A stretch of 64,000 bases of DNA. Origin: Vicinamibacterales bacterium. Lineage in GTDB: Bacteria > Acidobacteriota > Vicinamibacteria > Vicinamibacterales > UBA2999. Location of the stretch: positions 1 to 64,000 of the forward strand of contig DASRJE010000208.1 of the NCBI GenBank assembly GCA_035649635.1, given 5' to 3'. The position numbers and the translations under genes were made by a program. The notes under the pieces were generated by a model. It searched no databases and had not been told where the DNA came from. It was given only the letters and a program-made list of their open reading frames with translations. Below, piece by piece: positions 17,239 through 54,393 of the stretch (positions are counted from its first letter, which is position 1; the number at the start of each line of letters is the position of its first letter).

Positions 17239-17319
17239 CGCGTGCCCCCGCGCGAAGCGCGGGCAGAAGATACTGCGACTAGCGAGACGGAGCCGCATGC
17301 TCGTCGGGGCGCAGTCTCG

Positions 17320-29911: not shown

Positions 29912-30399
29912 TGTTTCTTTCCCCCGACCTGCACTTCGAAGCCGTCCGGATCCTGGACGTGGAAGCTGCCTTCAGTCACTCGAATGTTCAGCCCTCGCTT
30001 CTTCAGCTCTGCTTCGACCGCTGGCTTGACCGACTTATCGGTATCCCAGTTGGCCAGTGTGTAGGCGATGTGATCGACGCCGACCTTGCCGCCAGGGCGG
30101 CTGCTGGCGTTGCGCGGAATGAGGATGTTGTCGCCGAACGTCAAGCGGCACTGTGTCTTTCCGTCATCGTCCGAGATCTTCATTCCCAGCAGGCCCGAGT
30201 AGAAGTCGCGCGTCTTCGTATAATCGGCGACCTGCATCGAAACGTGGTTGATGGAGAGGGCGTTTGCCGGCGCGGCCTGTGCCGTCGTGGCGGTTGATGT
30301 CGCCGCCGCTGCGGCGGCTGCCAGGGTCCGAATGAGGTGACGGCGAGTCACTTTTCCGTGTTCGTACTCCTCGAGCAACCTGCTGATGATGTGCTCCAT
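29908..30399 (-). CDS. Tat-signal VOC (glyoxalase/bleomycin-resistance/dioxygenase) family protein
   Basis: Tat signal RRHLIRTLAAAAAAA. VOC fold segment INHVSMQVADYTKTRDFYSGLLGMK...VDHIAYTL. Confidence 0.7.
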   Translation of the reverse strand: MEHIISRLLEEYEHGKVTRRHLIRTLAAAAAAATSTATTAQAAPANALSINHVSMQVADYTKTRDFYSGLLGMKISDDDGKTQCRLTFGDNILIPRNASSRPGGKVGVDHIAYTLANWDTDKSVKPAVEAELKKRGLNIRVTEGSFHVQDPDGFEVQVGGKKQ

Positions 30400-30693
30400 G
30401 GCTCATTCTCCTTCTGTCTGAAATACACGGAGTGGACGGAGCGAACTGATTCGCACGGAGTAGCGAAGAATGCGCTGAGCTTTGCCGTTACTGGCTTATA
30501 CGCCCGCCTTGCACCAACGTCAATCGAGCGCAGATCGAAAAGGCGAATCGAAAAGACACTGTTGACAAGGCCTCGCCACGAGTTTAGAAATCAGCCGCGG
30601 CGGAACAAGCGGGACCTGCAGGAGTGACCGGGAAAGCTCGGCCTTTCGGCCCTGCCCCGATTCGAACACACCGGCGAGTCAATAGGAGGGTGT

Positions 30694-31815
30694 ATGAAAA
30701 CGATCAGCGTCGCTGCGGCTGTCGCCGCCCTGCTCGCGACTGGCGTCCTCGCCCAATCTACGGAGAAAGGCGGGGGCGACGTCACGGGATCGTACGACCT
30801 CGTGACAGGATGGCCACAGAACTGGTGCGGCGAGGGGTTCGTCATCGGATCGACAGCAGGCATCTGGGCGGAATCCCCGGACCGGGTCTTCATCTTCGCC
30901 CGCGGCTGTCTGCCGCGCCTGGAGAATCCCGGTGACGTGGTCCCGACGCGGAACGCATCCGGATTCGATCTTTCGCAGAAGGATCCCTCTCGCCATCCAC
31001 GCTGGGATCACATCGTTAACATCGTCGACCGAAACGGCCGGTTGGTCGAGTCGTGGGAGCAACACAACAAGCTGTTTGTGCGACCGCATCGTGTGCTGGT
31101 GAGTCCCTACGACACGGACCGGCACGTGTGGCTGATCGATGACGGCGCGCACGCCATCTACAAGTTCACACGAGACGGCAAGCAGCTGGTGATGACCGTG
31201 GGCACGCCCAGGATGCCGGGCAACGATGAGACGCACTTTGCGCGCCCGACTGACGTTGCTTTTCTGCCCGACGGAACGTTCTTCGTGAGCGACGGCTACA
31301 CCAATACTCGCGTGGTGAAGTTCGATCGCAACGGCAAGTACCTCACGTCCTGGGGCATGCGCGGCAATCCGCCCAACGAAACGCGTCCGTACTACATGAA
31401 CACTGTGCACGCGATCGTCGCCGACAAGCAGCGGCGCCTGTACGTGAGCGACCGCGCGAATCACCGCATCCAGATCTTCGACGAGAACGGCAAGTTCCTC
31501 GACGCGTGGCCCAACGTCCCGCTGCCGTATTCGCTGCTGATGACCGACGATCAGTTCCTCTGGTCCGCGTCGGGTGAAACGCAGAAATTCACCAAGTACG
31601 ACCTGAATGGACGGCTGCTTGCCGCTTGGGGCACGTTCGGCGCATTCCCCGGCGGATTCTGGGGTGTGCACCAGTTCCACGTCGATAGTGAAGGAAGCCT
31701 TTACACGGCGGACGTGCACGTGGGACGGCCGCAGAAATTCCGTCCCCGGCCCGGCGCCGACCGCAACCGTGTCATCGGACCACCGACGCGAACGGGGGTG
31801 ACGTCCACGCGTTAA
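30694..31815 (+). CDS. Secreted NHL-repeat beta-propeller protein (paralog of 28814..29911)
   Basis: Signal MKTISVAAAVAALLATGVLAQ. NHL blades YVSDRANHRIQIFDENGKF and FFVSDGYTNTRVVKFDRNGKY. Confidence 0.75.
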   Translation: MKTISVAAAVAALLATGVLAQSTEKGGGDVTGSYDLVTGWPQNWCGEGFVIGSTAGIWAESPDRVFIFARGCLPRLENPGDVVPTRNASGFDLSQKDPSRHPRWDHIVNIVDRNGRLVESWEQHNKLFVRPHRVLVSPYDTDRHVWLIDDGAHAIYKFTRDGKQLVMTVGTPRMPGNDETHFARPTDVAFLPDGTFFVSDGYTNTRVVKFDRNGKYLTSWGMRGNPPNETRPYYMNTVHAIVADKQRRLYVSDRANHRIQIFDENGKFLDAWPNVPLPYSLLMTDDQFLWSASGETQKFTKYDLNGRLLAAWGTFGAFPGGFWGVHQFHVDSEGSLYTADVHVGRPQKFRPRPGADRNRVIGPPTRTGVTSTR

Positions 31816-32168: not shown

Positions 32169-33500
32169 ATGCCTACGCCACTCTTCTTGCTTGACCGGCC
32201 GTTGACCAACGGGGACCTCGAGACCTACGACGAACAACTCCGGCAACTCCAGGGGAATATCCTGAAAAGTCACGGTCGGAACGAGACGGCCAGCATCTTT
32301 CTCACCTTCCTGCCAGGACAGATCGACGGAGTCAGGGATTTCCTGCACACCATGGCACGCCGCGTGACATCCGCGCAGCAACAGGAGGCGCAGGCCAGGG
32401 CCAGGGAAAGGAACGAGCTCTTCACAGGACTCTGGCTGAGTGCCGAGGGCTATAAGTTCCTGGGCCACAGTCTCACGGGTTTCGATTTGACCTTTCGCCA
32501 GGGTATGCGCGGCGCCAAGGAGCGCCTGGACGACCCGCCGGTGGAAAACTGGGAGCCAAAGTTCAGAGAACAGATCCATGCGCTCGTGACGTTCGCGCAC
32601 AGCGATAGAACCGTCGTGTCGGCCAAGCTCGATGACCTTCGCGGCGAAGTCGGGAGCATCGCCTCGGTATCGTCGGAGCTCGGTCATGCCATGCGCGACG
32701 GCGACCGTGCCTTCGAACATTTCGGGTTTCTGGACGGCGTGAGCCAGCCGATCTTTTTCGCCAAAGATCTGCCGGACGCGACTTCGAGAGCGCAGTGGGA
32801 TCCGTCGGCGGGGCCGAGGCTGGTGCTCAGGCAAGACCCGCTCGGCACCCGCGAGGAGTGTGGCTCCTACTTCGTCTTCCGCAAGCTCGAACAGAACGCC
32901 AAGCGATTCAAGCTGCGACAGAAGGCCCTCGCACGGAAGCTGGGCGTCTCGACGGCCGTGGCAGGCGCCATGATCATGGGGCGCTTCGAGGACGGCACAC
33001 CCATTACGAAGCGCCAATCGGAGAACGGGAGAAGGGAAAACGATTTCAACTATGGCGCAGACGGACACGGCCACGTGTGTCCGTTCTTTTCCCACATTCG
33101 CAAAGCCAATCCTCGTGGGGCTACCGACAACGGGATCCCGGGGGCCGAAGGTGTCCATCGTATTGCTCGCAGAGGCATTACTTATGGCGACCCCACGCCC
33201 CGCAACGGAAGTAGTTCGCACTGGCCCGAAAACGGTGTCGGTGTGCTCTTCCAATGCTGCCAGGCCGTTCTGTCAAATCAGTTCGAAACGATTCAAGGCC
33301 GGTGGGCAAATGATCCCAGTTTCATCAGGGCCGGAGTCGGCCAGGATGCGGTGATTGGCCAGCGGGGGCAGACTCGTATCGCGTTTCCCGCGGGGCGCGG
33401 CAGCGCAGCCCGTGTGCCATTCGACTTTGGGGAGTTCATCCACATGCGCGGCGGCGAGTACTTCTTCGCCCCCGCCAAGTCGGTGTTGGTCAGGCTCTAG
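32169..33500 (+). CDS. Dyp-type (dye-decolorizing) heme peroxidase
   Basis: ORF 32169..33500, 443 aa. Shows the DyP family pattern LFTGLWLSAEGYKFLG, FGFLDGVSQP and HIRKANPRG (proximal His region). Confidence 0.8.
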   Translation: MPTPLFLLDRPLTNGDLETYDEQLRQLQGNILKSHGRNETASIFLTFLPGQIDGVRDFLHTMARRVTSAQQQEAQARARERNELFTGLWLSAEGYKFLGHSLTGFDLTFRQGMRGAKERLDDPPVENWEPKFREQIHALVTFAHSDRTVVSAKLDDLRGEVGSIASVSSELGHAMRDGDRAFEHFGFLDGVSQPIFFAKDLPDATSRAQWDPSAGPRLVLRQDPLGTREECGSYFVFRKLEQNAKRFKLRQKALARKLGVSTAVAGAMIMGRFEDGTPITKRQSENGRRENDFNYGADGHGHVCPFFSHIRKANPRGATDNGIPGAEGVHRIARRGITYGDPTPRNGSSSHWPENGVGVLFQCCQAVLSNQFETIQGRWANDPSFIRAGVGQDAVIGQRGQTRIAFPAGRGSAARVPFDFGEFIHMRGGEYFFAPAKSVLVRL

Positions 33501-33540: not shown

Positions 33541-34356
33541 TCAGCCGCGGCCCGGCGTGCCGTGCCAGCGCGTATGCGTGCGATGAAGCACTCGTGCTGA
33601 CACGGATGTATCTTCGGCGCGGTGCATGAGCGACAGGTTGTCCCACACGAGCACGTCGCCAGGCCGCCATGCGTGCGCGTAAATGAATTCCGGTTTCAGC
33701 GCATGCGCATAGAGACTGGCGAGGAGCTGGACGCCCTTCCTCTTTGGCAGTCCCACAATCGAATCGATGCTGAATTGATTCAGGTAGAGCGACCGCCGCC
33801 CGGTCACATGATGTTCGCGGACAAGTGGGTGGACTGTAGCCCCATCCCGCGGCGCTGTGAGCCCTGACGCTCCGAGCAAGGCGCCGAAACAATGACGGGC
33901 CGCAAGAGGTTCGAGAACGGCCTTTCTCTTGGGAGGCAGCGCCTCGTAGGCCCCCCGCATGTTCGCAAACATCGTGGCGCTGCAGGGTGACGGCACGACG
34001 ACCGCCTTCAGGACGATGACGGGCGACGGGTCTGGCTTGAATGACTGGTCGGTGTGCCAGAAGACAGTCGATCTGGTGACGCCAGGAGCTCCGAGGTCGT
34101 GCCGGACCACCTGAATCCGCCGATCGTCCCGGAGCCTGAACGGCGCATCCCTGGGAAGAACCCGCTCGTCCACCTCCCCAAAGATGCTCGTCAGCGCCAC
34201 TTGATCGTCATACGACAAAATCTGATCCCTGAAAACGAGGAGCAGGCGTTCGTGCAACCCACGCACAAGCTGGCGTCGGCCGGCCGGCGTGATCCGCTCG
34301 AGATCGAAGCCCACCACCTCAGCCCCGAAGGAGGCAAGGAGAGGACGAATCAGCAT
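33541..34356 (-). CDS. TauD/TfdA-family Fe(II)/2-oxoglutarate-dependent dioxygenase
   Basis: Segments WHTDQSF (HxD facial triad) and ...MHRAEDTSV... (distal His). Length is typical of the family. Confidence 0.75.
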   Translation of the reverse strand: MLIRPLLASFGAEVVGFDLERITPAGRRQLVRGLHERLLLVFRDQILSYDDQVALTSIFGEVDERVLPRDAPFRLRDDRRIQVVRHDLGAPGVTRSTVFWHTDQSFKPDPSPVIVLKAVVVPSPCSATMFANMRGAYEALPPKRKAVLEPLAARHCFGALLGASGLTAPRDGATVHPLVREHHVTGRRSLYLNQFSIDSIVGLPKRKGVQLLASLYAHALKPEFIYAHAWRPGDVLVWDNLSLMHRAEDTSVSARVLHRTHTRWHGTPGRG

Positions 34357-34408: not shown

Positions 34409-36829
34409 ATGATCGGCATCTCTGTCTCTCACTATCTCGTCACCGACAGGCTCGGTGGGGGCGGCATGGCCGTCGTCTACGAGGCGCAGGATGTGCGTCT
34501 GCCTCGACGAGTCGCTCTCAAGTTCCTGCGCGACAAGCTCGCGAACGACCCGCTGGCGCTTACCCGGTTCAAGCGCGAAGCGGCTGCGCTGTCGCTCCTC
34601 AATCACCCGAACATCTGCACGATTCACGAGGTCGATGCGTTCGAGGGGCAGCCGTTCATCGCGATGGAGAAACTCGAGGGGCGAACGCTTCGCGCGCGCC
34701 TCGCGGAAGGAAAAGTCGAGCCTGCGGAGCTGGTCGACATCGCCGCGCAGATAGCCCAGGCCCTGAAGGCGGCGCACGAGAAGGGCATCGTCCACCGTGA
34801 TATCAAGCCGGGGAACATCTTCATCACGTCGAACGGCGTCAAAGTCCTCGACTTCGGTCTCGCGAAACTGCTCGTCGGGACCGAGAACGAGACCGTCGAG
34901 GACCACACAGTGGACGGACGGCCCGTGGGGACTGTCAACTACATGTCCCCCGAGCGCATCCGGCAGGACAATCTCGATCCCCGCAGTGACCTCTTCTCGC
35001 TCGGCGTGGTGATCTTCGAAATGGCGGCCGGATTCACCCCCTTCGAGGGCGGATCGATCGCTCAAACGGTTGCGAACGTCTTCGACCAGGATCCGCCGGC
35101 GCTCTCCGACGTGGCACCGCGTCAGCCGGACGAGTTGCAATCCATTGTGCACAAGCTGCTGGCTCGAGATCCCGAGGACCGCTATCACACCGCGGGGGCC
35201 TTGTTGCGGGATCTGAAAGCACTGGCGATCCGGATAGATGTCCGGGCGGGAGCCACCAGTCAGACCACGACCAGTGTCCGCGGGAAGACAGACCCGAGGA
35301 GCGGGCGGATATCCGTCGTGGTGATGCCAACGAGAGTGTTGGCTGAGGAAGCCGACTCGTTTCTTGCGGATGCTATTCCGAATGCCATCTCCAAGCATCT
35401 GCTGAAGGTCCCGGGCATCGAGACCAAGCGCCCGCCCACGACCGGCGACCTCGAGCGCGTCGCCGGCGATCTCGATCAGGTGGCCACCGTGTACGGCGCG
35501 ACCGCGTACGTCGTGTCCCTGCTGAACGTCTCGAGTGGGCGATTCAAGCTGTCTGTCCAGTTGGTCGACACCGCGTCTCGCAAACTCAGATGGTGCGACG
35601 AGTACAAGGGTTCGCGTAAGGGATACACCGGTATCGTGAAGGCGGCGGCGGAAGGGATCCGGCGCGCGTTGCAACCGGACACGGACCCGCCGCCGGCGAC
35701 GACGTCGGTGGTGGTCAATCCCGAGGCCGAGCTGCTCCTGCAACAGGGCTTGTACCATTTGAACCTGTTCAGAAATCTCGCCCGGCCGACCGATTTCGAG
35801 CGCGCGGAGACGACGCTTCGCCGCGCCGCCGACCTCGAGCCGGAGCGAGCCGATGCTCCTGCCGCTCTTGCATTGCTGCATACGGCACGGCTCGTGACCG
35901 GCGCCTCTCCATCGGAGGTCGTTCCTGTGTGTGAGACCTGGGTGAAGCGGACGCTGGAAATCGACCGCCGGAACAGCAAAGCGTGGGCGATTCTCTGCGA
36001 GCTCGAGACCATGCGCTCGGAGCTTCGAAAACCGTTCGAGTACGGGCTCAAGGCCGCGGCGTTCGGCGGCCGCGATGCGTTCGCGCACGCGAGGCTCGCC
36101 GGATGTCTCATGTGGCATTCCTACGAGTTGTCGTTGCTCGCCGCCAGTGAGGGCGCGCGCTTCGATCCTCTCGTCCTCGATGCGCCAGTGTTTGCGGCGA
36201 TCAGCCTGAATCAGTTGAGTCGCAGGGACGAGGCACTATCGCTGATCGAAGTCGTGCTCAACATCGAGCCGGACATGCTCCTTGCGCAGTTCATCAAAGG
36301 CCTGATCCTTGCCGATGCCGGCCGCACGGATCCGGCACTGGAGATCATGGCACGGCTCGAACCTTTTGCCGCAAAAGGCCGGCTGCTGCCACAATGGCCG
36401 GCAATCTTCAAGGACGTCGCGGCGTATCACGACGCCGCCACGACCGGGGACACCGAGATGCTCGATCGGACGACACAGAGGCTGGCAGGTTTCGCGAGAG
36501 GTGAGAACCAGTTCCCGCGCTGGGAACTGACGACGTCGGGAATCACACGGCTGCTGGCCAAGCGTTCACCGGCATTGTCGCTCGAACTATTCGCGCACCG
36601 CGCGATGATGGGGATCATCGAGCCGTACGACCATCTCGTGACGCACCCGGATCTCGATCCGCTGCGTGGCGACACGCGCTTCCAACGCCTGCTCCGCACA
36701 TCGCGTCGAAATTTCGAAGAAACCCTGTCTGTCGTGCGAATGGCGCAGAGCCGCGCCGAGGCCCCCGACTACATCGCCCACGCGCTCGACGACATCACAA
36801 AACGCTTTCAGCTCTCCACCAGTTCCTGA
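34409..36829 (+). CDS. Ser/Thr protein kinase with C-terminal TolB-N-like and TPR-like regulatory region
   Basis: Hanks kinase motifs [27 protein letters not shown] and DFGLAK, followed by ...[23 protein letters not shown]... and ~450 aa of helical repeats. Confidence 0.85.
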
Positions 36830-36831
36830 CC

Positions 36832-38262
36832 GTGCCGGCTACGCTCGCGCTCATCGACGGCGTGCACATCGACACGTCCGAATCGGTGACGCGTATCTTG
36901 GGCCCGGGCGTCGACCTCGTGCTGGACCGGCCCTCCGCCCAAGATCTGAAAACACTTCGACGGCTCGTCTTGGGACGAAGCTCGCACAGCGCGCTCACGA
37001 CCCGCACCATCGCTCACGGCGGGCTCGCGGGGTTACGCCGGTTCTACGAGCTGCTTGCCGAGTTGATCACACGGGGCTGGCTGATCGAGCGTGTCGTTGA
37101 CGGCACGGCTGCGATCGTCAGCGCGATCCCGTTGACCGATGACTATTCATGGAACGACGGGTCGAACGGTGATCGGGAAGGCACACTCTCGCGCTTTGCG
37201 TTCATGCGACGCGTCGGTGCGCAGATGGTGCTCGAATCGCCAACCGCGCGTGCACAAATCGTCCTGCATGACTGGCGAGTACTCTTCCTGCTGTGGCAAC
37301 TCTCGCGTTCCCGCCCGCGTTCGCGCGCCGGCACGCCGGGAGCCGGATTGCCTCGATCTGTGATCCGCGCCGTTCGCGGCATGCTCTGGAGCGCCGGGTT
37401 CCTCGTGACCGGAAATGACGGACCCGATGCAGGAGAGCCCCCAAAACTGTTCTTCTGGGAGTTTCATGATCTGCTGTTTCATAGTCGATCGCGCCTTGGC
37501 CGGCATCACAATCCGTATGGGGCAACCTATCCCTTCGAAGGTCGCGTGCCGATGCCGCCGGTGTTCAGACCTCGCGACCGCCGCACGCGCATCCGCTTGT
37601 TCAGGCCCGACGTCACGCGACTTCGTCGCACCGATTGGACGCTCACGCGCGCGCTCGAGGCGAGGCGATCGCAAAGAGACCACAGCGATTCACCGATCAC
37701 ACGACGGGAACTTGGCGAGTTTCTCTTCCGATCAGCGGCCGTCAGATCCGCCCGACCACACGATCGTTATGCCGCCAGTGTGCGCGTTTACCCGAGCGGC
37801 GGCTCGGTGTATTCGCTGGAATTGTATATAGCGGTCCGGCTGTGTGCGGGCCTGGCACCTGGGCTGTATCACTACGTTCCCGAGCGACATGCGCTCTCTC
37901 GAGTGAGCTCGTTGACGGTTCCCGTCCGGTCACTCCTCGACAGCGCCGGTCGCGCGGTCCGCGCCGCGCAACCGCAGTTGCTCATTCTCATCGCTGCTCG
38001 ATTCCCGCGTGCCGCGTGGAAGTACTCGTCGATTTCTTACTCCCTCGTCCTGAAAGAGGTCGGAGCGCTGATGCAGACGATGTATCTCGTGGCCACGGCG
38101 ATGGGACTTGGCGCGTGCGCGCTTGGCGGGGGCGATTCCGATCTATTCGCGAAGGCGGCCGGAATGGACTACTACGCCGAAGGCTCAGTCGGCGAGTTCA
38201 TTCTCGGCCGTCTTCCACGATTCGCCGGAGCGCGCAGGCTTCAGCCTGGGCGGAAATTATGA
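36832..38262 (+). CDS. SagB-type (McbC/ThcOx-like) FMN-dependent dehydrogenase with ~250-aa N-terminal extension
   Basis: GTG start 3 nt after the kinase stop. The C-terminal 200 aa match the SagB-type dehydrogenase pattern: RRSQR..., YPSGGSVYSLELYIAV, GLYHYVP, RAAWKYSSISY, KEVGALMQTMYLVATAMGLGACALGG, EGSVGEFILG. Confidence 0.8.
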   Translation: MPATLALIDGVHIDTSESVTRILGPGVDLVLDRPSAQDLKTLRRLVLGRSSHSALTTRTIAHGGLAGLRRFYELLAELITRGWLIERVVDGTAAIVSAIPLTDDYSWNDGSNGDREGTLSRFAFMRRVGAQMVLESPTARAQIVLHDWRVLFLLWQLSRSRPRSRAGTPGAGLPRSVIRAVRGMLWSAGFLVTGNDGPDAGEPPKLFFWEFHDLLFHSRSRLGRHHNPYGATYPFEGRVPMPPVFRPRDRRTRIRLFRPDVTRLRRTDWTLTRALEARRSQRDHSDSPITRRELGEFLFRSAAVRSARPHDRYAASVRVYPSGGSVYSLELYIAVRLCAGLAPGLYHYVPERHALSRVSSLTVPVRSLLDSAGRAVRAAQPQLLILIAARFPRAAWKYSSISYSLVLKEVGALMQTMYLVATAMGLGACALGGGDSDLFAKAAGMDYYAEGSVGEFILGRLPRFAGARRLQPGRKL

Positions 38263-38302
38263 CCGGGGCTGAAGCCCCGCGCTCCTCTGTACCGAAACCA
38301 CT

Positions 38303-38641
38303 TCAGAAACAGCAGTAGTGTTCTCTCGGTCCACGCATGATGCCCCAGCGCTCTCGCAGGTGGTCCGCCATTTCCTCGTAGGTGAATACGAACTCCGGAT
38401 CGAATTCCCTGGCGATGTCGAGGATCCTGGAATTGTGTGCGGCAATCCTCGCCTGCAAGTCCGCGTTGGTCTCGACTGCGGTGAAGAACCGGGAGACCGG
38501 TGAGTCGTCTGGAACGAACGCCACCAGTCCGACCGGCGCAGTCCTGCGCGCAGCCTTTCTCTTCGCAGTCTTCTTCGCGGCTTTCTTCACTGACCTCTTC
38601 GTGGATTTCTTGGCAGCCTTCTTCGCGGACTTTTTCGCCAT
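38303..38641 (-). CDS. Candidate RiPP precursor: Lys-rich N-terminal tail, Nif11-like leader-type domain, C-terminal ...HYCCF
   Basis: 112 aa. Residues 2-33 are AKKSAKKAAKKSTKRSVKKAAKKTAKRKAARR (AAG-rich, visible in the DNA as cttcttcgc runs). Residues ~48-92 (VSRFFTAVETNADLQARIAAHNSRILDIAREFDPEFVFTYEEMADHL) fit the Nif11 pattern. It ends RGPREHYCCF. Lies 37 bp downstream of the YcaO gene on the same strand. Confidence 0.55.
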   Translation of the reverse strand: MAKKSAKKAAKKSTKRSVKKAAKKTAKRKAARRTAPVGLVAFVPDDSPVSRFFTAVETNADLQARIAAHNSRILDIAREFDPEFVFTYEEMADHLRERWGIMRGPREHYCCF

Positions 38642-38677
38642 GACGCCTCCTCGCGCGAGGGTGATTATCGCCGAGTG

Positions 38678-40846
38678 TCAAATGACGATGTGAAAATTGT
38701 TCATCTGACCTTCAGTCCGGGACGTCCGGCGCCACCCCAGGGCGACCGGTACGTCGTACAGCCGGCCGGGTGCGAATCGAGGCCAGAAATGACGAAGGCC
38801 CGGCACAATCACTCGAACGACCGGTAGACCAACATCCTTTCGCGTCTGATCGAGGACGAGCGTCTCCATGCCACACCGGTGAGCGGCGGTCACACATGCC
38901 ATCACCGCGTCCCGGATGTCCGTGTAGATGGCGTCCTGAAAGTTCCGCCGGTCGCGAACGGCGGTCTGCCTGGTGCGCCTCAGGAACCGACCGAGGCCCG
39001 AACGTCGGTGACTGAAACTTGGTCCCGCGACGCCCAGGTGCACTCCGCTGCGCCATTGATTCAGCTCGGTGATGGCACGGGCGATCGCCGTGCTGGCGTC
39101 GAGATGCGCGCCGAAGCCGAGGAGCAGTTCGCCGGTTCCGCGTTGGAGTCCCTCGGAAACCGCCGCGAAAACGGGTATGCCGAGATCGGTCGTCAGGTCG
39201 TGGACGGTGAGCGAGCGGCCGTTCCTGGCATAATCGCGCACCATTCGCCGAAAGAACGGATTCGAAAAGGTGGCGAGATCGACCGTGGGTCTCGCAAGCT
39301 CGTTGTACCACCAGATCGCGACCGCGTCCCGTTCGACCAGCTCCAGGAAGCCCTGCAGAATGGCCTCTTCCAGGCTGTTGCCGGCCGCGCAGCCGTTCGA
39401 GTTGGCGCGACTGCATCGCTCCGCTTCAGGTGCGCGATAGCCAAAATAGCAGTAGGCCGTCGGCACGTAACGGATTGTGTCGTGGCTGAGCGACCACACA
39501 GGCGTCCAGTCGATTTCCTGCTGGCGGTCGAGAAGTCGGGGAACCCAGCATTGCGGCAATGCACGAGCATTCCAGGCGTCGCGCTCCTCGAACTGCAACT
39601 CGCTGAATGCGGCGCACGCGTTGGGATGAATGGCTTGTCCGCCCAGGGCGTCGTACGACGTCCGTACCCGTGTTTCGATGCCGCGAAAGATTCCTGAATA
39701 CCGTTCGAGCGCTTCGCACAGGGCGCTGGCCCTTGCCTGGGCTCGCCCGATGCCTTTCCCCGAGCTGAGACGACGGCCAGTTGGGAATGGCTCGGTCTCC
39801 GACGCCAGGAACACGTGCTCGGCGGAATACAGCTCCAACCCGCGTGATGCCGTCGTCCTCCGGGTAATTCGCGTGATGATGCCCGTCCACCTGCTGATGT
39901 GATGCCTGTAGCGACTGAACGTCTTGTGGGGCGGCACCGCGCGCCAACCACCGTCAGAGAACGCGGCTCTCGGCCGTCGCGTAAGTACGATTCGCGGATC
40001 CGGTAATGACGTTCCGCCTTCCGAACTGGCTACTGGCGGCGCGCACCGTGGACAGCCTGGCTGCGGGACCACGAGGTGAGCGCTGGATCGCCACAACCGA
40101 GGATCGAGCGCAATCATCGTCCCGATCCGAGTCAACGGTTGCAGTAAGGTGTTGGACGGGGCGCGAAGCTGATTGTGCCGGATGCGAAGTGTCTTCAAAT
40201 CGACGGGATCGCTCGCGAGTCCGCCCGACGATTCCAGCCATGTGTGTGCGGGTCGGTTGGCCCGGATTCGTGCGAGCACACAATCCCAGCATGGTGTCGA
40301 CGGGGGATGCACGAGCGGACCCACCCAGATGACTGTGCCCATGGGCTTGACAGGCAGCCAGGCACGATTGGCGCGTGCGGCTTTTTTCGCGAAATCGGAG
40401 ACGTCGCGACGAAGGTACTCATCGGTCAGGACGACCTCCACGTCGCCGTTGCGACGTGGCGCGAGCCCGAGCTTGTCCAGGACATCGATTGTGGCGGCGT
40501 TCGCCGCGTTACGAGTTCCCTCACGCGTGCGCCGACGGCCATCGACGAGGTGACCGGATCGATGGAGGATCGCGAGCGATGCGAGTACCTCGGCGACGCT
40601 TGCTGAACCTCGCAGTTCCTGAACGATGTCCATCACCGACCGCGTGCCATCGAGCAGGGGCGCCAGGCGAGGGAAGATCGGCCCCTCGAGGGGCCACGAC
40701 TCCACGTCTGACAGCAGCACCGCCCGTGAAGAATCGATGCTGGCCACGGTGAGGTGCGGCCTCAGTTGCGGAAACGACGACTGGCCGCGCTTCACCGCAT
40801 CGCGTCCAGGGTGGTCTTCAACGGCTCGCGGCTTTCGAGTGCCCAC
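38678..40846 (-). CDS. Fused TOMM cyclodehydratase: E1-like/ocin-ThiF-like leader-binding domain plus YcaO domain (C-D fusion)
   Basis: N-terminal ~300 aa carry the PCWDC motif and docking-domain features. The YcaO core reads GKGIGRAQARASALCEALERYSG...SNGCAAGNSLEEAILQGFLELVERDA. 722 aa. Confidence 0.85.
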   Translation of the reverse strand: MGTRKPRAVEDHPGRDAVKRGQSSFPQLRPHLTVASIDSSRAVLLSDVESWPLEGPIFPRLAPLLDGTRSVMDIVQELRGSASVAEVLASLAILHRSGHLVDGRRRTREGTRNAANAATIDVLDKLGLAPRRNGDVEVVLTDEYLRRDVSDFAKKAARANRAWLPVKPMGTVIWVGPLVHPPSTPCWDCVLARIRANRPAHTWLESSGGLASDPVDLKTLRIRHNQLRAPSNTLLQPLTRIGTMIALDPRLWRSSAHLVVPQPGCPRCAPPVASSEGGTSLPDPRIVLTRRPRAAFSDGGWRAVPPHKTFSRYRHHISRWTGIITRITRRTTASRGLELYSAEHVFLASETEPFPTGRRLSSGKGIGRAQARASALCEALERYSGIFRGIETRVRTSYDALGGQAIHPNACAAFSELQFEERDAWNARALPQCWVPRLLDRQQEIDWTPVWSLSHDTIRYVPTAYCYFGYRAPEAERCSRANSNGCAAGNSLEEAILQGFLELVERDAVAIWWYNELARPTVDLATFSNPFFRRMVRDYARNGRSLTVHDLTTDLGIPVFAAVSEGLQRGTGELLLGFGAHLDASTAIARAITELNQWRSGVHLGVAGPSFSHRRSGLGRFLRRTRQTAVRDRRNFQDAIYTDIRDAVMACVTAAHRCGMETLVLDQTRKDVGLPVVRVIVPGLRHFWPRFAPGRLYDVPVALGWRRTSRTEGQMNNFHIVI

Positions 40847-40910
40847 TCGGATCCTTGGTGTCTTCGTTGAACCTGTTCCGCACGGCGAGGAGATCGCAGC
40901 AACGGCTCTC

Positions 40911-41112
40911 CTCAGTGTCAGGCAGTGAATCGTGAACGACGCGATTGTCCGCTAAACGGTGTCAGGCAGTGAATCGTGAAGGCGCGATTGTCCGCTAAAC
41001 GGTGTCAGGCAGTGAATCGTGAACGTGAACCGTGAACAGGCAGGGCAACGGCTCTCCTCGACGGCTCTCTTCGGTGTCAGGCAGTGAATCGTGAAAGGTG
41101 AATCGTGAACGT
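40911..41112 (+). repeat. Tandem array (4 full plus partial copies) of a ~23-bp element GTGTCAGGCAGTGAATCGTGAAC with 20-21-bp near-identical spacers, 65-265 bp upstream of the YcaO gene start
   Basis: Copies at 40915-40937, 40959-40980, 41002-41024 and 41074-41095, plus GTGAAC partial repeats. Spacers gacgcgattgtccgctaaacg and ggcgcgattgtccgctaaacg. Confidence 0.8.
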
Positions 41113-41610
41113 TATTGCGGCCAGGACCCCGGTCGGCCGTGACAACCAAATCCCAACCCGCTGGAGACGTCCGGCCTGGGCCCCGGCTCACTTCTTACTG
41201 ACGGTAGAGGGCGCCACCGCCAGAAATATCGCGATGTCAGCGGCTGTAGCTACCGAAGGCTGCACGACGACATGAGCTCGCGTCGCAAGCGCAGCGCCGC
41301 GCCGCCAGCTGTACACTTTCGCCCTCGGCTAGCAGGGTGCCGTCGATGACGTGGAACGTGAAGCGCGTGAGTCGGACGCGGCGTAACGACTCCGAGATCC
41401 ACGACGCCCAAGACGCTGGGCGTCAATTCCTTGGGAAACACACACGTTGACCTCGTCCTGGTGACCTCGACGTCAGGCAGAGTTCGGCGATCTTCTCCAC
41501 ACTCTTGGAATTGTGGCCGCCCGGCATGCCTCAGACTATCTCGCGGAGCCTCGGCAGGTTCAGGTCAAGGCGGTGTGGTTCATCCTTGGCAAGGATGTCG
41601 ATTGATTCAG

Positions 41611-41635
41611 CGTTCACGATTCACTGCCTGACACC
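41611..41635 (-). repeat. Dispersed copy of the same element in inverted orientation (CGTTCACGATTCACTGCCTGACACC) downstream of the PQQ dehydrogenase
   Basis: 25/25 identity to the reverse complement of the array unit. Confidence 0.7.
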
Positions 41636-41710
41636 AAACCGTCAGGATCAGTCGGATGGCTGCCGCCACGACAGCCCAGGATCCGCAGTCCGACTGCGGT
41701 GGCGTCCCTT

Positions 41711-43831
41711 CTATTCGACGATGATCTGAGCATACGCCCAGGGATGCTCTTTGCAGGTGTAGACGTAGGTGCCCGGTCGATCGAATTTCACGCCGGCGAC
41801 ACCGGCGGGATCGATCGGACCCGTGGACCATGAACCGTCGTCGGCCTCGGCCGAGTGGATCATGGTGCCGTTGTTGCGCCATGTGACGGTCGTGCCCACC
41901 GCAATCTTTGCGCGGTACGGATTGAACTGGTACTCGTCGGTCATGAAACGCGCGCCGGTGAAGGCGTTGTCCCGTTGCAGGGCCGCGGTCTCAATCTGCG
42001 TCGTTTCGGTAACCATGCCGGTGAAGAGCTCCGGCTCGCGCGGCGCCGGCGGCCCCGGTCGTGGTGCCATCGTGCCCCCGAGCTTGAATGCCCAGACATT
42101 CGTGCTGGTCACGAGCGAGACGAACTGCTCGCCGTCGAGTTCGAACGACGCCGCTGGTCCTCCAGCGGGAGCGCCGGTCTGGAACTGCCACACGATCTCG
42201 CCAGTCCTGGCATCGTGCGCGCTGAAGTGTCCGTCCGGCGCAGCGTGAAACAGCAGCCCCCCGGCCGTGGTCAGTACACCGCTCGGGCGGCCGGCACCTG
42301 ACGGGAACTCGCGGCGCCAGACGATCTTGTGCGTCTCGCCATCGATTGCCGCCATCACGAACGTCTCGAACCGATCGATCCCGGGCACGCGATTGCTGAA
42401 GGCGGTGCTGAAGAAGTACCCATCTTCGGCTCGGCGGAGCCAGCGCAGCGAACGTTCCCCGACGGCGTAGAAGTACCCGGTCTGCTGGCTGTAGGACATC
42501 GGCGCGACGCGCATCCCGTAATACGGCATCAGCACGTTCGGCTTGTCGATCGACACCGCCTGGTAGTAGCAGCCAACCTCGAAGCCTTTCGGCATGGTCT
42601 GCGTCTTCCGCCACCAATCGCAGTCGGGAAGGACGCCTTCGGCACCGGCAGGGAAGGGCTGCGTTGCGGCGGTTTTCTGAAAGCGGTCCTGCGGGACCTT
42701 GCGCTCCTCGATCTTCATCAAGGGTTTGCCAGTGACTCGATCGAACGTGAACACGTAGCCATCGGGCCGAATGGCACCGATCGCCTTCACCGTCCTGCCG
42801 CCCACCTGTGCGTCGTACAACACGGGTGAGATAGACATGTCGGCTTCCCAGATATCGTGGCGGATCGTCTGGTAGTGCCACTTCAGTTTGCCCGTCTTCA
42901 TGTCGAGGGCAACGATCGAGCAGATGAAGAGGTTGGTGCCCTCGCGATGCTCACCGGAGAGCTGAGGTACGCCGTTGCCGGTGACGTAGTAGAAGAGGCC
43001 GGACTCTTCGTCCGCGACGCCCGTCAGCCAGAGGGCGCCACCGCCGAACTTCCACTGGGCGGTCTTGGGCCATGTCTCGCTGCCTGGCTCTCCGGGAGCG
43101 GGCACCGCGAACCAGCGCCAGACCTCGCGTCCCGTCTTGCCATCGAGTCCGACGACCTGTCCGCGCCAGCCGTTGTCGGCGCTCAATCCGACCGAGACGA
43201 TACCGCCCGCGTAGACGGGCGCACCGGCGATTCCCTGCCCTTTGTCCCGTGCATCCTCGCCAACGTACTTGTTCCACACGAGCTCGCCGGTGTCGTCGCG
43301 GAGCGCGATGACCCGCGCGTCGGACGTCCCGACAAAGACAAGACCATCGCCGATTGCAACACCTTCGCGGTCGGGTGCGCCCATCCGTGGCGCACCGGCG
43401 GCGGAGCCGCCGCGCGCACCACCGCCGCCGGCCGTGAAGCGCCAGACGGTCTTGCCGGTCCTCGCGTCGATCTTCACGACGTTGGGCGGGGCGGTGAAAT
43501 ACATCATGCCGTTCTTCACGACCGTCATCGATCGCGAATTCGCGGGCGGAGTCAGCCGGTCCGACATCCACACGGCACCGAGCCGCGACACAGTCTGCGT
43601 GTTGATCTGATTCAGGGTGGAGTAGCGATTTCCCAGATCGCCCATGACGGTCGACCATTCGCGGCCGCTGGATGGCGCCGGACCGGATTGGACGGAGACC
43701 GTCACGGGAATCGTAAGAGCCGCGGCGACGGCGGCCGTGAGAATCCACGCCGCGCGTCCGCGCGCACGCCATCGCCCAACTGTTCGTTCGCAGCGACTAG
43801 TGAGTACGTGGCTCAGCCTACGAAATGTCAC
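41711..43831 (-). CDS. PQQ-dependent dehydrogenase (eight-bladed beta-propeller) with C-terminal cupredoxin-like domain
   Basis: Signal-like N-terminus. PQQ propeller repeats throughout. The last ~100 aa (VGTTVTWRNNGTMIHSAEA...GTYVYTCKEHPWAYAQIIVE) show a cupredoxin-like His...Cys-x2-His arrangement. Exact start uncertain. Confidence 0.8.
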   Translation of the reverse strand: MTFRRLSHVLTSRCERTVGRWRARGRAAWILTAAVAAALTIPVTVSVQSGPAPSSGREWSTVMGDLGNRYSTLNQINTQTVSRLGAVWMSDRLTPPANSRSMTVVKNGMMYFTAPPNVVKIDARTGKTVWRFTAGGGGARGGSAAGAPRMGAPDREGVAIGDGLVFVGTSDARVIALRDDTGELVWNKYVGEDARDKGQGIAGAPVYAGGIVSVGLSADNGWRGQVVGLDGKTGREVWRWFAVPAPGEPGSETWPKTAQWKFGGGALWLTGVADEESGLFYYVTGNGVPQLSGEHREGTNLFICSIVALDMKTGKLKWHYQTIRHDIWEADMSISPVLYDAQVGGRTVKAIGAIRPDGYVFTFDRVTGKPLMKIEERKVPQDRFQKTAATQPFPAGAEGVLPDCDWWRKTQTMPKGFEVGCYYQAVSIDKPNVLMPYYGMRVAPMSYSQQTGYFYAVGERSLRWLRRAEDGYFFSTAFSNRVPGIDRFETFVMAAIDGETHKIVWRREFPSGAGRPSGVLTTAGGLLFHAAPDGHFSAHDARTGEIVWQFQTGAPAGGPAASFELDGEQFVSLVTSTNVWAFKLGGTMAPRPGPPAPREPELFTGMVTETTQIETAALQRDNAFTGARFMTDEYQFNPYRAKIAVGTTVTWRNNGTMIHSAEADDGSWSTGPIDPAGVAGVKFDRPGTYVYTCKEHPWAYAQIIVE

Positions 43832-43858
43832 AGATCCAGCCTCGTATTCATGTCGTAG

Positions 43859-43926
43859 CGTTCACGATTCACTGCCTGACACCAGGAGCGCACCAGGAGC
43901 GCATTCACGATTCACTGCCTGACACC
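43859..43926 (-). repeat. Two more inverted-orientation copies of the element, separated by a duplicated CAGGAGCGCA motif, in the PQQ dehydrogenase promoter region
   Basis: 43859-43883 and 43904-43926 read directly. They sit between the stop of the 43936..46080 gene and the start of the PQQ dehydrogenase gene. Confidence 0.7.
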
Positions 43927-43935
43927 AGGACGCGA

Positions 43936-46080
43936 CTACTTCGCGAGCGGGTCGGGACGCATCTGGAACTTCATCACCTTGCTCGTCGTCCCTTTGCCCG
44001 TCTCCATGTGGAACGGCGTTCTGGTCGATATCGTCGTCCAGATGCCGCGACCCTTCCATCCGGCGTTGGGATCATCGATACGGCCGTCCATCCACTTCGT
44101 GTAGAACCCAAGCGGATACGGCACGCGCATGGTGACGAACTTGCCGTCTTTCAACGCCAGCAGTGCTTCAGTCGCGTTCCCGGTGTTGATCGGCACGTTG
44201 CGCCCCAGTCCCAGCGTGTCGAACTGATCGACCCACGTGTAGTAGCTCCCTTCCGTGCTTCCGGAATCGGTGACGTTCTTGAACTGCGGCGCCGGCTCCG
44301 TGTAGAAAGTCCAGCCTTCGGGACAATGCAGACCGCTGGCTTTCGGACCGTTCAGCGCGCCTTTGCACTTGCGGCGATCGAAGCTCGCGAGATGGCCGCT
44401 TGCCATGGCCGCCCAGTACACGCCGTTGCGATCGACGTCACCGCCGCGCGGTGAGAATCCCTTGTCGACGGGAGGTTGATAGATCTCCACGAGCGCCGTG
44501 TCTGGGGGATTCGACCCGGGCGCGAGTCTGATGAGAGCTCCCGGATACCCGAGCTGCGTGCCCCACACCGAACCGTCAGGCGCCGGCGCCACGGCGTAGA
44601 GCGCACCGCCTATGCGCTGATCCTTGCTCGGGTCGAGCGGCTGATCCGGTTCGGTATACGCGTCGCGTTTTCCGTTTCCGTTGGCGTCCCTGATGAGAGC
44701 CGTCCAGCCCTGCGACTTCATCTCGTCCTGCGTCTCGTCGAACATCTTCGTGTTGAGCCATCCGATCACCTGTCCGCCGCCGCTGGTCCACAACGTGTGG
44801 TTCGCGTCCTCGGCGAACATCAGGTGATGGGTTCCGAAGCAGGTGCTGATGTGAGTCAGCTTCTTCGTCGCCGGGTCGTACACGGCTAGGTGGCGGCCCG
44901 CGTTTTCCACGGGGAAGAGTTTCGCAGAGGGGTGGCTCGAGCCGGTCTTGCACTCAGGCGGATTCGCTGCGGGCCGTACCGTCGAGGTCAGCCACACCCG
45001 TCCTTTGTGATCGAGCATCGGGTTGTGGACGTTGTTCTTGCTGGTCCAGATCACCTCGTCCGCCCAGTACGGCGACGGCTCCGGCATCGCGGGATTCGTC
45101 GGGGGAGTCTTGGGGTCTCTTACCGTCAGCGGCACCTGGCTCGCCGTGTTGGTAACCGGATTCAACACCGGCACGTAGTCGGCACTGAGTTCAAGCGCTC
45201 CGTACACCGGCCCATTCGGATTGACGCGCGGATTCCTCCGGTCGGTCGAGACGACGTCGTGCAGGTATGCCTTGGGATCGGCCCAGTCCCACTGCGTGAT
45301 GACGACGTTTCGCTCGATCCCCTGCGGACGTTGCGGCGCCGGTGGAACCTCGCCGGCACGGACCCGATCGGTCCAGTCCGCGAACATCTTCAAGACGCGC
45401 GCGCGGCCGAAATTATTCAGTTGGCCAGTCATCTGCCCGCCAGCCTGCCCGGACTTCACGCGACGATCCCAGGCCGCGACGGTGTTGGGGAATGAACCGA
45501 GCGCCGCCGGGATTTCCCTCGTGCCCTTGGTGCCGAGCGCATGACACGCAGTGCAGCCTCCTGATTTCACGCTGCGGATCCAATCGCCCTGGCTCTTCAT
45601 GTTCGGCGAGATCCCGTTGCCGCTGTCGCCAGTGCCCGGGAACTCGCTCTTGGCCGGCATCTCCATCAACGCCAGCCAGTGTGCGGCCGGATAGTAATGT
45701 GCCGCCTCCGCCGGAGAACTCGCTTTCACGGCACGAAGGGCAAGGCTCTTGCCCGGAGTTGCCTGAACCTTCGGGGAGTCGACCAGCCCGTATCCGCGCA
45801 CCCAGACGCGGTAACTGGCCTTGGGTAGATCGGGCACCAGATAACGTCCGCGATCGTCGGTGACGACAATCCGCGCGAACGGTGTGGGCAGGTCGGTCGT
45901 TTCGGCAACGACCCAGACACCGGCCTCGGGCCCGGACGGCCCGGTTACCGTTCCTGCCAGGTCGTCGTTGTCGATCGCGATCGCGTCGTTCGATGTTTGC
46001 GCGGCACGGGTACCACTCACGATTCCCGCCCAGACCATGAGTCCGATAATGATTCCGAGGGTCAGTGGTTTTTTCGCCAT
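43936..46080 (-). CDS. Secreted protein with N-terminal carboxypeptidase-regulatory-like domain and a CxxCH heme-binding motif
   Basis: Start MAKKPLTLGIIIGLMVWAGIVSG (signal). CarbopepD_reg-like segment VVAETTDLPTPFARIVVTDDRGRYLVPDLPKASYRVWVRGYG. Single heme motif GGCTACHALG. Confidence 0.65.
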   Translation of the reverse strand: MAKKPLTLGIIIGLMVWAGIVSGTRAAQTSNDAIAIDNDDLAGTVTGPSGPEAGVWVVAETTDLPTPFARIVVTDDRGRYLVPDLPKASYRVWVRGYGLVDSPKVQATPGKSLALRAVKASSPAEAAHYYPAAHWLALMEMPAKSEFPGTGDSGNGISPNMKSQGDWIRSVKSGGCTACHALGTKGTREIPAALGSFPNTVAAWDRRVKSGQAGGQMTGQLNNFGRARVLKMFADWTDRVRAGEVPPAPQRPQGIERNVVITQWDWADPKAYLHDVVSTDRRNPRVNPNGPVYGALELSADYVPVLNPVTNTASQVPLTVRDPKTPPTNPAMPEPSPYWADEVIWTSKNNVHNPMLDHKGRVWLTSTVRPAANPPECKTGSSHPSAKLFPVENAGRHLAVYDPATKKLTHISTCFGTHHLMFAEDANHTLWTSGGGQVIGWLNTKMFDETQDEMKSQGWTALIRDANGNGKRDAYTEPDQPLDPSKDQRIGGALYAVAPAPDGSVWGTQLGYPGALIRLAPGSNPPDTALVEIYQPPVDKGFSPRGGDVDRNGVYWAAMASGHLASFDRRKCKGALNGPKASGLHCPEGWTFYTEPAPQFKNVTDSGSTEGSYYTWVDQFDTLGLGRNVPINTGNATEALLALKDGKFVTMRVPYPLGFYTKWMDGRIDDPNAGWKGRGIWTTISTRTPFHMETGKGTTSKVMKFQMRPDPLAK

Positions 46081-46336
46081 GATGCTCTCGCCTTTCGTGC
46101 GGCTGTCCACTAATCCGCGAGCCAGATGGAGTTGGAGGTTGCGGCGTTAATGCGCTCAGCGCCGCCTGAGGATATCGCAGGTGGCTACGGCAGCCAACTC
46201 ATCGTGTGGGGGCTCACCAGCCTGTTGACTGCGTAATTCTCACGGTCTCAGACTACGGTTCGCCTTCAGCAGGGGCGGGTGTAGCCGCAAGAGCAAGGAA
46301 GAAGAAGCGGAGGCGAAGGACGACGATCGACCGTGA

Positions 46337-49044: not shown

Positions 49045-49114
49045 GACGTCTCTCTTCAAGGACAGCGTGTGTGATTTTTGCAACCATCACGATCGAAAAT
49101 CACACCCGGTGTTT

Positions 49115-51800: not shown

Positions 51801-51878
51801 CGATAATCTCCTGGCCCGCCGGGTCCGAAAAACAGGACCCGGCCTACGTTGCCTCCGTTAGGACCCGGCCTACGCTGT

Positions 51879-54377: not shown

Positions 54378-54393
54378 CTCTACCGTGACAATC

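Follow-up and report, generated by a model that had tools for sequence, protein, structure and literature searches.

The locus

The window analysed here is a 64,000-nucleotide stretch of contig DASRJE010000208.1 (assembly GCA_035649635.1, positions 1 to 64,000, forward strand) from a soil acidobacterium of the order Vicinamibacterales. It carries a six-gene set made up of a YcaO cyclodehydratase gene, a small precursor-like open reading frame (ORF), a SagB oxidase gene, a Ser/Thr kinase gene, and genes for a TauD-family dioxygenase and a DyP-type peroxidase. The kinase and SagB genes lie on the plus strand and converge with the small ORF and the YcaO gene, which lie on the minus strand. We consider it probable that this locus is a dedicated module that turns the last two cysteines of a small protein into thiazole rings. 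All ORFs listed in a first-pass annotation of the sequence were found again at their positions. That annotation had recognized three hallmarks of azol(in)e-peptide biosynthesis, a SagB dehydrogenase, a fused YcaO cyclodehydratase and an adjoining small ORF, and this view is upheld, with the two enzymes passing curated hidden Markov model (HMM) cut-offs and the ORF being conserved. Judged by its enzymes, which fall within the class, the locus works like a thiazole/oxazole-modified microcin (TOMM) or linear azol(in)e-containing peptide (LAP) system. The genes are as follows.

32169-33500, plus strand: DyP-type haem peroxidase, 443 residues (PF21105 above cut-off)
33541-34356, minus strand: TauD/TfdA-family Fe(II)/2-oxoglutarate dioxygenase, 271 residues (PF02668, 171 bits)
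34409-36829, plus strand: cytoplasmic Hanks-type Ser/Thr kinase, 806 residues, with a kinase domain (residues 1-280) and a TolB_N-like/tetratricopeptide repeat (TPR) part (residues ~300-806)
36832-38262, plus strand: SagB/ThcOx-type oxidase of azolines, dependent on flavin mononucleotide (FMN), 476 residues (TIGR03605, PF22767, CyaGox alignment)
38303-38641, minus strand: precursor or scaffold protein, 112 residues (conserved after the YcaO gene; family profile; AlphaFold2 model)
38678-40846, minus strand: fused winged-helix RRE, E1-like and YcaO cyclodehydratase, 722 residues as listed (TIGR03604, TIGR03882, PF02624, PF21084)

The same strain or species occurs in many soil, farmland and rhizosphere metagenomes, with an identical gene order. 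In a Vicinamibacterales metagenome-assembled genome (MAG), NCBI names the kinase 'serine/threonine-protein kinase' (HZM96761), the oxidase 'SagB family peptide dehydrogenase' (HZM96762) and the YcaO protein 'TOMM precursor leader peptide-binding protein' (HZM96764.1). Long antisense ORFs over the kinase and YcaO genes were taken to be high-GC artefacts.

The cyclodehydratase and the azoline oxidase

The YcaO protein scores 268 bits against TIGR03604 (cut-off 219) and 326 bits against PF02624 over the full profile. Residues 161-324 match TIGR03882 (96 bits, cut-off 37), and the N-terminus is a winged-helix PF21084 domain (residues 27-100). Among solved structures it is closest to the cyanobactin heterocyclases LynD, MusD and TruD (E ~1e-145). 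Proteins from relatives align only from residues 24-27 onwards, and the true start may lie about 25 codons downstream of the listed one. Below about 45% identity, the protein falls into a large clade of thousands of proteins, including many from cyanobacteria.

Some YcaO proteins act outside the making of RiPPs (peptides that the ribosome synthesizes and that are modified after translation), and the first-pass annotation had named such a role among the findings that would refute its reading. The two models that bear on this are far under their cut-offs: the S12 methylthiotransferase accessory model NF040716 gives 38 bits against 700, and the McrA thioamidation model TIGR03266 gives 164 bits against 365. 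Both roles were rejected. No TfuA match was found among the proteins called beside the YcaO gene, either in the window or in its relatives.

The SagB protein scores 163 bits against TIGR03605 (cut-off 78) and 90 bits against PF22767, the ThcOx N-terminal domain. Residues 28-460 align with the cyanobactin oxidase CyaGox (5lq4) over its full length (E 1e-78), and the Lys-Tyr motif is kept as WKY. The translational coupling of the kinase and SagB genes proposed earlier was confirmed. The kinase stop codon TGA (36827-36829) is followed by CC and then by the GTG start at 36832, and a gap of 3-4 nucleotides is also present in relatives. The GTG start is supported by the SagB proteins of relatives, whose alignments begin at residues 1-4.

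The small ORF as a probable precursor

The 112-residue ORF has a GGAGG sequence 5 nucleotides ahead of its ATG and ends in REHYCCF followed by TGA. Its AlphaFold2 model is disordered at residues 1-45, forms four helices at residues 48-99 with high confidence (pLDDT ~90) and is flexible in the last dozen residues. It can be divided as follows.

38507-38641, minus strand: codons 1-45, Lys/Ala-rich disordered tail (low AlphaFold2 score)
38345-38500, minus strand: codons 48-99, four-helix Nif11-like domain (AlphaFold2, pLDDT ~90)
38306-38326, minus strand: flexible tail R-E-H-Y-C-C-F, with the cysteine codons at 38309-38314

The family is rare. Only two relatives (98% and 56% identical, both ending in HYCCF) came up in a word-indexed search of 5.8 billion proteins, and 15 in an exhaustive profile search of 1.84 billion representatives. 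A metagenome scan with the precursor alignment gave 229 pattern matches, none of which was confirmed. In the family alignment (A3, 20 members), conservation extends over the whole length, up to the C-terminus. A helical block reads FFD.V....LQA.I...N.NI..LA...G..F.Y.EM..HL..RW.I..(G/P)P and is followed by 3-7 variable residues, then [Y/F]-C-[C/T]-[F/T/C], and then the stop codon. The first cysteine of this motif (C110) is kept in at least 90% of members and is usually part of a Cys-Cys pair; Tyr109 is replaced by Phe in several relatives. No GG motif marks the end of the leader in this family, and the conserved motif at that place is HL..RW.I..(G/P)P. The Lys/Ala-rich N-terminal tail (MAKK...) is variable, present in most members and missing in three short ones. 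The unusual features that had been pointed out, a very short core with two cysteines and an extra polycationic tail, are real: the core has 3-7 residues and most members keep the tail.

The assignment of this protein as a Nif11-type precursor stands at the family level and fails for the window protein alone, which falls under the model cut-offs. Twelve of the 20 family members match Pfam Nif11 at E<=0.05 (best E 6.7e-13). The family profile also matches PDB entry 9zn4, a 'Nif11 domain-containing protein' (E 4e-5), and hhalign aligns it to the Pfam-positive Nif11 precursor of the distant relative L018 with a probability of 98.5. A Foldseek comparison of the precursor model with the PDB returned no meaningful match; the Nif11 entry was found by sequence profile alone. 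We regard the protein as a divergent Nif11 relative and not as a model-defined one, because it is below threshold itself and matched only through its family. The HMM checks suggested by the first-pass annotation thus came out positive for TIGR03605, TIGR03604 and TIGR03882 and negative for the Nif11 models on this protein.

The first-pass annotation had also proposed synteny as a test of its reading, and the outcome does not refute it: all relatives with readable DNA (L001, L007, L015, L016, L020, L021 and L018) keep the small ORF immediately behind the YcaO gene. L015 and L016 each carry two tandem copies, and tandem duplication is typical of precursors. In L002, from the Longimicrobiales, the small ORF about 180 nucleotides after the YcaO stop is incomplete and scores 28.5 bits against TIGR03798 (cut-off 32.3).

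It could be argued that the ORF is no YcaO substrate at all and encodes a small nucleic-acid-binding or regulatory protein that is merely co-transcribed, with the enzymes acting elsewhere. The histone-H1-like Lys/Ala-rich tail, the presence of two cysteines only and the scores under the Nif11 cut-offs would fit this. Set against it are the invariant position after the YcaO gene and the retention of the terminal cysteine motif among YcaO proteins that are only 51-71% identical, the tandem duplication in L015 and L016, the homology to L018's genuine Nif11 precursor, whose core is classical, and the finding of no other candidate of the precursor family in the window. We consider this explanation very improbable.

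Clusters in related genomes

Gene tables and tblastn searches of relatives whose YcaO proteins are 51-57% identical to that of the window reveal a common order, in which the YcaO gene and one or two precursor genes converge with the SagB and kinase genes, accompanied by TauD and DyP. A Gemmatimonadales MAG (L001) has a YcaO protein that is 62% identical. The full-length kinase, TauD and DyP are co-inherited despite rearrangements of gene order.

More distant clusters differ in their precursors. L018 (YcaO 41-43% identical) encodes a 73-residue, Pfam-positive Nif11 precursor with a Cys/Ser/Thr-rich core, TDDKDTCTICSCV, which starts right after the RWGI..PP motif common to the window family. Its genes run YcaO, precursor and an S8/sedolisin protease, and those for SagB and an orthologous kinase converge with them. 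The few loci sampled below about 45% YcaO identity are again linked to kinases. Allocoleopsis L019 (YcaO 38% identical) has two ORFs of about 120 residues that resemble the NHLP-Burk precursors of Burkholderia, the second ending in PYSSC, and a 1863-residue kinase-AAA-GAF-HisKA protein beside the YcaO gene; SagB is lacking there. In the NHLP-Burk loci of Burkholderia themselves (L004 and L005, YcaO 33-34% identical), the precursor scores 137 bits against TIGR03795 and ends in YLFSCC, and the kinase/cyclase scores 1734 bits against TIGR03903.

The protease, extracytoplasmic function (ECF) sigma factor, TonB receptor, cytochrome c and 297-residue upstream protein encoded beside relatives' clusters were sought with tblastn, and none lies near the window cluster. 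A search of about 15 kb in the window and of the relatives' gene tables turned up no C39-peptidase ABC exporter. A conserved protease or exporter is lacking throughout the clade with TauD and DyP. An S8 peptidase gene lies about 2.4 kb upstream in L020; the nearest S8-like ORF in the window is about 33 kb from the cluster.

The kinase

The earlier identification of the kinase as a Ser/Thr kinase-TPR protein is borne out by a Pfam Pkinase match (164 bits) and by the modelled TPR superhelix. The HRD, K, N and DFG residues are almost invariant across the family. In the C-terminal AlphaFold2 model (pLDDT 89.8), a TolB_N-like alpha/beta domain is followed by the TPR superhelix, and among two-domain Foldseek matches the best is to CadC's ligand-sensing periplasmic domain. 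The non-catalytic part of about 520 residues has only 34 homologues (E<=1e-5) in 5.8 billion proteins. This sensor family is as rare as the precursor family, with its 15 representatives. In the three cases traced (P0181/P0011, P0184/P0006 and P0189/L021), the C-terminal homologues share contigs with YcaO relatives. With a sensor family this small and found on YcaO-relative contigs, the kinase is no generic neighbour. Full-length orthologues are 47-48% identical in L015 and L016 and 37% in L018, and the L020 kinase is 65% identical over its C-terminal half.

Phosphorylation by Hanks kinases is a documented way of activating ECF sigma factors (PMC13147305, PMC8999054). Two relatives, L015 and L021, have an ECF sigma gene (16878-17492 and 8483-9106, respectively) that overlaps the kinase start, forming a sigma-kinase-SagB operon. 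The CadC-like sensor and this operon in two relatives lead us to read the kinase, from its sequence, as most likely a dedicated cytoplasmic sensor or regulator of the pathway and not a tailoring enzyme.

Kinase domains do act biosynthetically in class III and IV lanthipeptide synthetases, to which the window matches cover the kinase domain only. By this precedent, the kinase could be a biosynthetic or scaffolding part that phosphorylates the precursor or an enzyme, or its TPR part could present the precursor to the oxidase. The tight translational coupling to SagB in all relatives and the conserved catalytic residues are in line with such a role, as is the P0006 contig, where the neighbour of SagB is a 507-residue TPR-only protein (P0184) that is 65% identical to the C-terminal part of the window kinase. 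The precursor, however, has no invariant Ser or Thr; Y88 is present in at least 90% of members, and the window protein has Phe in place of the C-terminal Thr. The C-terminal module resembles a ligand-sensing domain, an ECF sigma factor accompanies the kinase in L015 and L021, and lyase and cyclase domains are lacking. We consider a biosynthetic kinase unlikely. P0184 is preceded by a 271-residue ORF with no Pfam match, and its kinase domain has apparently been split off or lost.

TauD and DyP

The first-pass annotation had listed TauD and DyP as candidate tailoring enzymes, and their co-inheritance through rearrangement strengthens this proposal. The DyP protein scores 86 bits against TIGR01413, under the cut-off of 100.5, and its closest solved structures are Anabaena Alr1585 (5c2i, E 2e-81) and DyP2. 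The TauD translation shows the HxD...H iron ligands. In L015 and L016, the orthologues share 50-52% identity for DyP and 61-62% for TauD. DyP was found in every relative with enough flanking sequence, and a partial copy of TauD (a 5' fragment) lies at the contig end in L021. Both genes are present in 7 of 7 cases with sufficient flank (the window and six relatives). In L015, L016 and L021 they now lie on the cluster's other flank and are still linked, with DyP divergent from YcaO.

In L015 and L016, TauD and DyP are separated by a gene for a TonB-dependent receptor (5413-8634 and 461-3682, respectively). This could hint at the uptake of a metal chelate, or it could reflect how common such receptors are.

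TauD and DyP might be neighbours kept by ancestry that take no part in maturation and serve, for example, uptake or the response to oxidative stress. Both are missing from the distant kinase-linked clusters L018, L019 and L004, a receptor gene has been inserted between them in two relatives, and in the literature searched we found neither a role for either family in azole RiPPs nor the combination of YcaO, TauD and DyP. On the other hand, both occur in 7 of 7 cases and stay linked through a move to the other side of the cluster, and in L015 and L016 the identity of TauD (61-62%) exceeds that of YcaO itself (53-56%). We judge the bystander explanation to be improbable.

Proposed maturation pathway

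The analysis establishes what the genes encode, their synteny and co-inheritance, the motif of the precursor family and the predicted folds, and every chemical step that follows is derived from homology. In the proposed pathway, the fused RRE/E1-like/YcaO enzyme would bind the folded Nif11-like domain of the 112-residue protein. We regard this as the most likely mode of binding because the closest solved homologues are the cyanobactin heterocyclases and CyaGox, with the Lys-Tyr motif kept. Protein-protein recognition of a structured leader has been demonstrated for NHLP leaders (PMC12455567). Using ATP, the enzyme would then close Cys110 and Cys111 by cyclodehydration onto the backbone carbonyls that precede them. 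The ThcOx-like FMN oxidase would aromatize both thiazolines to a contiguous 2,4'-bithiazole, for a net change of -40 Da. The TauD-type oxygenase and DyP would add further oxidative tailoring, and the kinase, co-translated with the oxidase, would control the pathway, with an adjacent ECF sigma partner in two relatives.

The L018 core starts after the shared RWGI..PP motif. By analogy, we infer that the boundary between leader and core lies after the (G/P)-P motif, here Gly-Pro, which would leave REHYCCF as the core and a peptide bearing a bis-thiazole as the product. The first-pass annotation had given the mass shift for an azoline as -20 Da. The correct values are -18 Da for an azoline, -20 Da for an azole and -40 Da for a bis-thiazole.

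Several observations weigh against parts of this pathway. The 112-residue protein scores 16.3 bits against PF07862, under the cut-off of 23.8, and gives no TIGR03798 match, and its core offers only two heterocyclizable residues. The replacement of Tyr109 by Phe in several relatives makes a phenol-dependent DyP step unlikely to be universal, and TauD and DyP are not part of the more distant L018 cluster. As for the control of the pathway, the 64-kb window contains no ECF sigma gene detectable by tblastn with the relatives' gene, and the sigma-linked kinases of L015 and L021 carry an extra N-terminal segment of about 85 residues that is missing from the window kinase. Finally, no protease or transporter gene was found within about 15 kb of the window cluster. 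With no Gly-Gly site either, a released peptide is not assured.

This last point leads to a different view of the product. It could be the whole modified protein of about 110 residues, carrying a protein-borne bithiazole, or an excised Tyr/Phe-thiazole-thiazole cofactor or metallophore, and not a peptide of the antibiotic type. Such a product would follow the logic of mycofactocin, PQQ and the pearlins. The precursor is conserved to its very C-terminus and has no Gly-Gly site, the polycationic tail is kept in most members, the TauD/DyP clade has no conserved protease or exporter, and L015 and L016 carry a TonB-dependent receptor gene between TauD and DyP. NHLP-Burk lacks a transporter as well (Haft et al., PMC2887384). 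L018, on the other hand, has a protease beside its precursor and a longer, classical core, and L020 has an S8 peptidase about 2.4 kb upstream. TonB-type and CarboxypepD_reg outer-membrane proteins are abundant in this phylum; they recur in the relatives' contigs and in the window, so the adjacency of the receptor may be chance. We see a protein-borne or cofactor product as a possibility, less probable than the peptide product outlined above.

A bolder version, which we offer as speculation and think rather unlikely, is that the module uses ribosomal synthesis to make a bithiazole moiety, for redox chemistry or metal binding, built on the scaffold's C-terminal [Y/F]-C-C-[F/T], oxidized by TauD and DyP and gated by the sensor kinase. 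The moiety would stay protein-borne or be excised, and the ECF sigma factor may join the gating in some lineages. It recalls the aryl-thiazoline-thiazolidine of pyochelin and the bithiazole of bleomycin. If true, this could also account for the kinase link of NHLP-Burk, which has long lacked an explanation.

Intergenic signals and flanking genes

Outside the coding sequences, the following features were recorded.

38264-38279, no strand: 6-bp GC hairpin, CGGGGC-TTCA-GCCCCG, lying between the stop codons of the two converging genes (read from the sequence)
38642-38677, minus strand: 36-nucleotide spacer between the YcaO stop and the precursor ATG, with GGAGG at 38646-38650 and GATAAT at 38664-38669
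40915-41095 (plus strand), 41613-41634 (minus strand) and 43861-43925 (minus strand): copies of the 22-mer GTGTCAGGCAGTGAATCGTGAA in three intergenic regions

The spacer was compared between the window and L001, L007, L015, L016, L020 and L021. It is 35-43 nucleotides long in relatives whose YcaO proteins are 51-71% identical, and 24 nucleotides in L018. An (A/G)ATAAT hexamer occurs 20-27 nucleotides ahead of the precursor ATG in 7 of 8 aligned relatives, despite a genome GC content of 62-66%, and extends to TGnAATAAT in several loci. By its sequence and position, this hexamer might act as an extended -10-like promoter inside the operon, from which the precursor could be transcribed separately. 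The hairpin between the convergent genes has no U-tract and received no score in the terminator scan. The promoter and terminator scan returned nothing exceeding the shuffled expectation, and an Rfam search of 38200-44000 gave no match.

The tandem repeat that had been noticed upstream of the YcaO operon does exist: it spans 40915-41025 with a period of 43 and 2.5 copies, and a further, fourth 22-mer lies at 41074. It is not a conserved part of the module. The 22-mer GTGTCAGGCAGTGAATCGTGAA has seven exact copies, all within 40915-43925, where zero are expected by chance, and has no Rfam match. Four copies lie upstream of the YcaO gene, one lies downstream of a PQQ-like dehydrogenase gene and two lie upstream of that gene. 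Contigs of the same species have 3-5 copies upstream of YcaO, and relatives have none. A role in the system was rejected, as the repeat is variable between strains, also flanks a neighbouring gene and is missing from relatives. It could be a set of binding sites for a regulator or a small element of the repetitive extragenic palindromic (REP) kind.

The PQQ-type beta-propeller dehydrogenase (41711-43831, minus strand) has a C-terminal cupredoxin-like segment and scores 307 bits against TIGR04528 ('acido-empty-quinoprotein group A'; cut-off 650). Its gene stands between the YcaO operon and the gene for a 724-residue CarboxypepD_reg protein (43936-46110). A 573-residue ankyrin-repeat protein is encoded about 6.5 kb past YcaO (47362-49083, minus strand), and on the P0009 contig a 635-residue ankyrin protein lies directly beside DyP. 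This may be a coincidence or a loosely linked accessory gene. Further out, 10-16 kb from the cluster and with no evident link to it, are a planctomycete-type DUF1552 and DUF1592-DUF1588-DUF1585 gene pair (50448-54506, minus strand) and a copper-resistance multicopper oxidase gene (55155-56924, minus strand). On the other side, two NHL-repeat beta-propeller proteins and a glyoxalase-fold protein flank DyP (28814-31815) and were not seen in the relatives' clusters. One of the NHL-repeat proteins (30694-31815) scores 77 bits against the ScyF model (cut-off 350).

Comparison with known systems

The first-pass annotation knew of no described family with this architecture. A described analogue does exist, the kinase-accompanied NHLP-Burk TOMMs, from which the window locus differs in having a Nif11-type precursor, SagB, TauD and DyP. 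NHLP-Burk was described bioinformatically by Haft, Basu and Mitchell in 2010 as having a large Ser/Thr kinase, a C-terminal Cys-Cys or single Cys, no Gly-Gly region and no transporter (PMC2887384), and we found no later characterization of its product in the literature searched. Both systems have a fused docking/YcaO protein of the same broad clade (33-34% identity to L004 and L005), a long structured precursor with a heterocyclizable Cys-Cys or single Cys at or beside the C-terminus, a large Ser/Thr kinase alongside, and neither a Gly-Gly motif nor a dedicated transporter. The tandem precursor pairs of NHLP-Burk are matched in two relatives of the window, L015 and L016. The window precursor, in contrast, is Nif11-like and does not match TIGR03795, the kinase has a TolB_N/TPR sensor in place of cyclase and ATPase domains, and the window has SagB, TauD and DyP, none of which lies within 10 kb in L004. 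The phylum also differs. Homology between the two precursor families was rejected (hhalign probability 0.14 against a Burkholderia TIGR03795 member), as was orthology of the kinase to the TIGR03903 kinase/cyclase (151 bits against a cut-off of 706, with only the kinase domain aligned at 32% identity). Because the precursors are not homologous and the kinases match in their catalytic domain only, the window system is not a member of NHLP-Burk. The resemblance is functional: the window system works like NHLP-Burk without belonging to it.

The cyanobactin enzymes LynD, TruD, PatD and MusD, together with ThcOx and CyaGox, are the closest solved homologues of the window YcaO and SagB proteins. They share the three-domain RRE/E1-like/YcaO architecture and a full-length ThcOx with an N-terminal RRE-like region. 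The window, in contrast, has no PatA or PatG protease, no PatE-type multi-cassette precursor and no macrocyclization machinery, and its substrate is a folded Nif11-like protein with a terminal two-cysteine site, unrelated to PatE. Since the proteases and the PatE-type precursor are missing, this is not a cyanobactin pathway.

With the N11P group (TIGR03798/PF07862), which includes the prochlorosins and Nif11-type TOMMs, the window family has a helical Nif11-like leader in common, and the relatives L002 and L018 have recognizable Nif11 leaders after YcaO. Unlike N11P members, the window protein is below threshold, has no ELS..GG motif and has no C39-peptidase ABC transporter. Its core is 3-7 residues long and not a Cys/Ser/Thr-rich stretch, and it has an extra polycationic N-terminal tail. 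The low scores and the lack of a Gly-Gly motif and of a C39-peptidase exporter mean that it is not a model-defined N11P member. The overlapping sigma and kinase genes of L015 and L021 resemble the pairs of Hanks kinases and ECF sigma factors, such as the ECF43 type and PknS-EcfK (PMC13147305), whereas the window has no ECF sigma gene in its 64 kb and its kinase is cytoplasmic with a CadC-like sensor.

The locus is best filed as a rare, conserved variant of the kinase-associated, terminal-cysteine kind of TOMM, with a Nif11-like precursor and its polycationic tail, plus SagB, TauD and DyP. It represents a second, independent precursor type with the odd features of NHLP-Burk (a long structured leader, a terminal two-cysteine site, no Gly-Gly motif or exporter, and a dedicated kinase). 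With two independent precursor types, the link between kinase and YcaO looks like a general design and not a curiosity of Burkholderia. TauD and DyP add two oxidative enzymes that the literature searched has not tied to azole peptides, and the host phyla, Acidobacteriota and Gemmatimonadota, are barely explored for natural products. A contiguous bithiazole on a minimal core, should that prove to be the product, would make a small and easily engineered pharmacophore or chelator.

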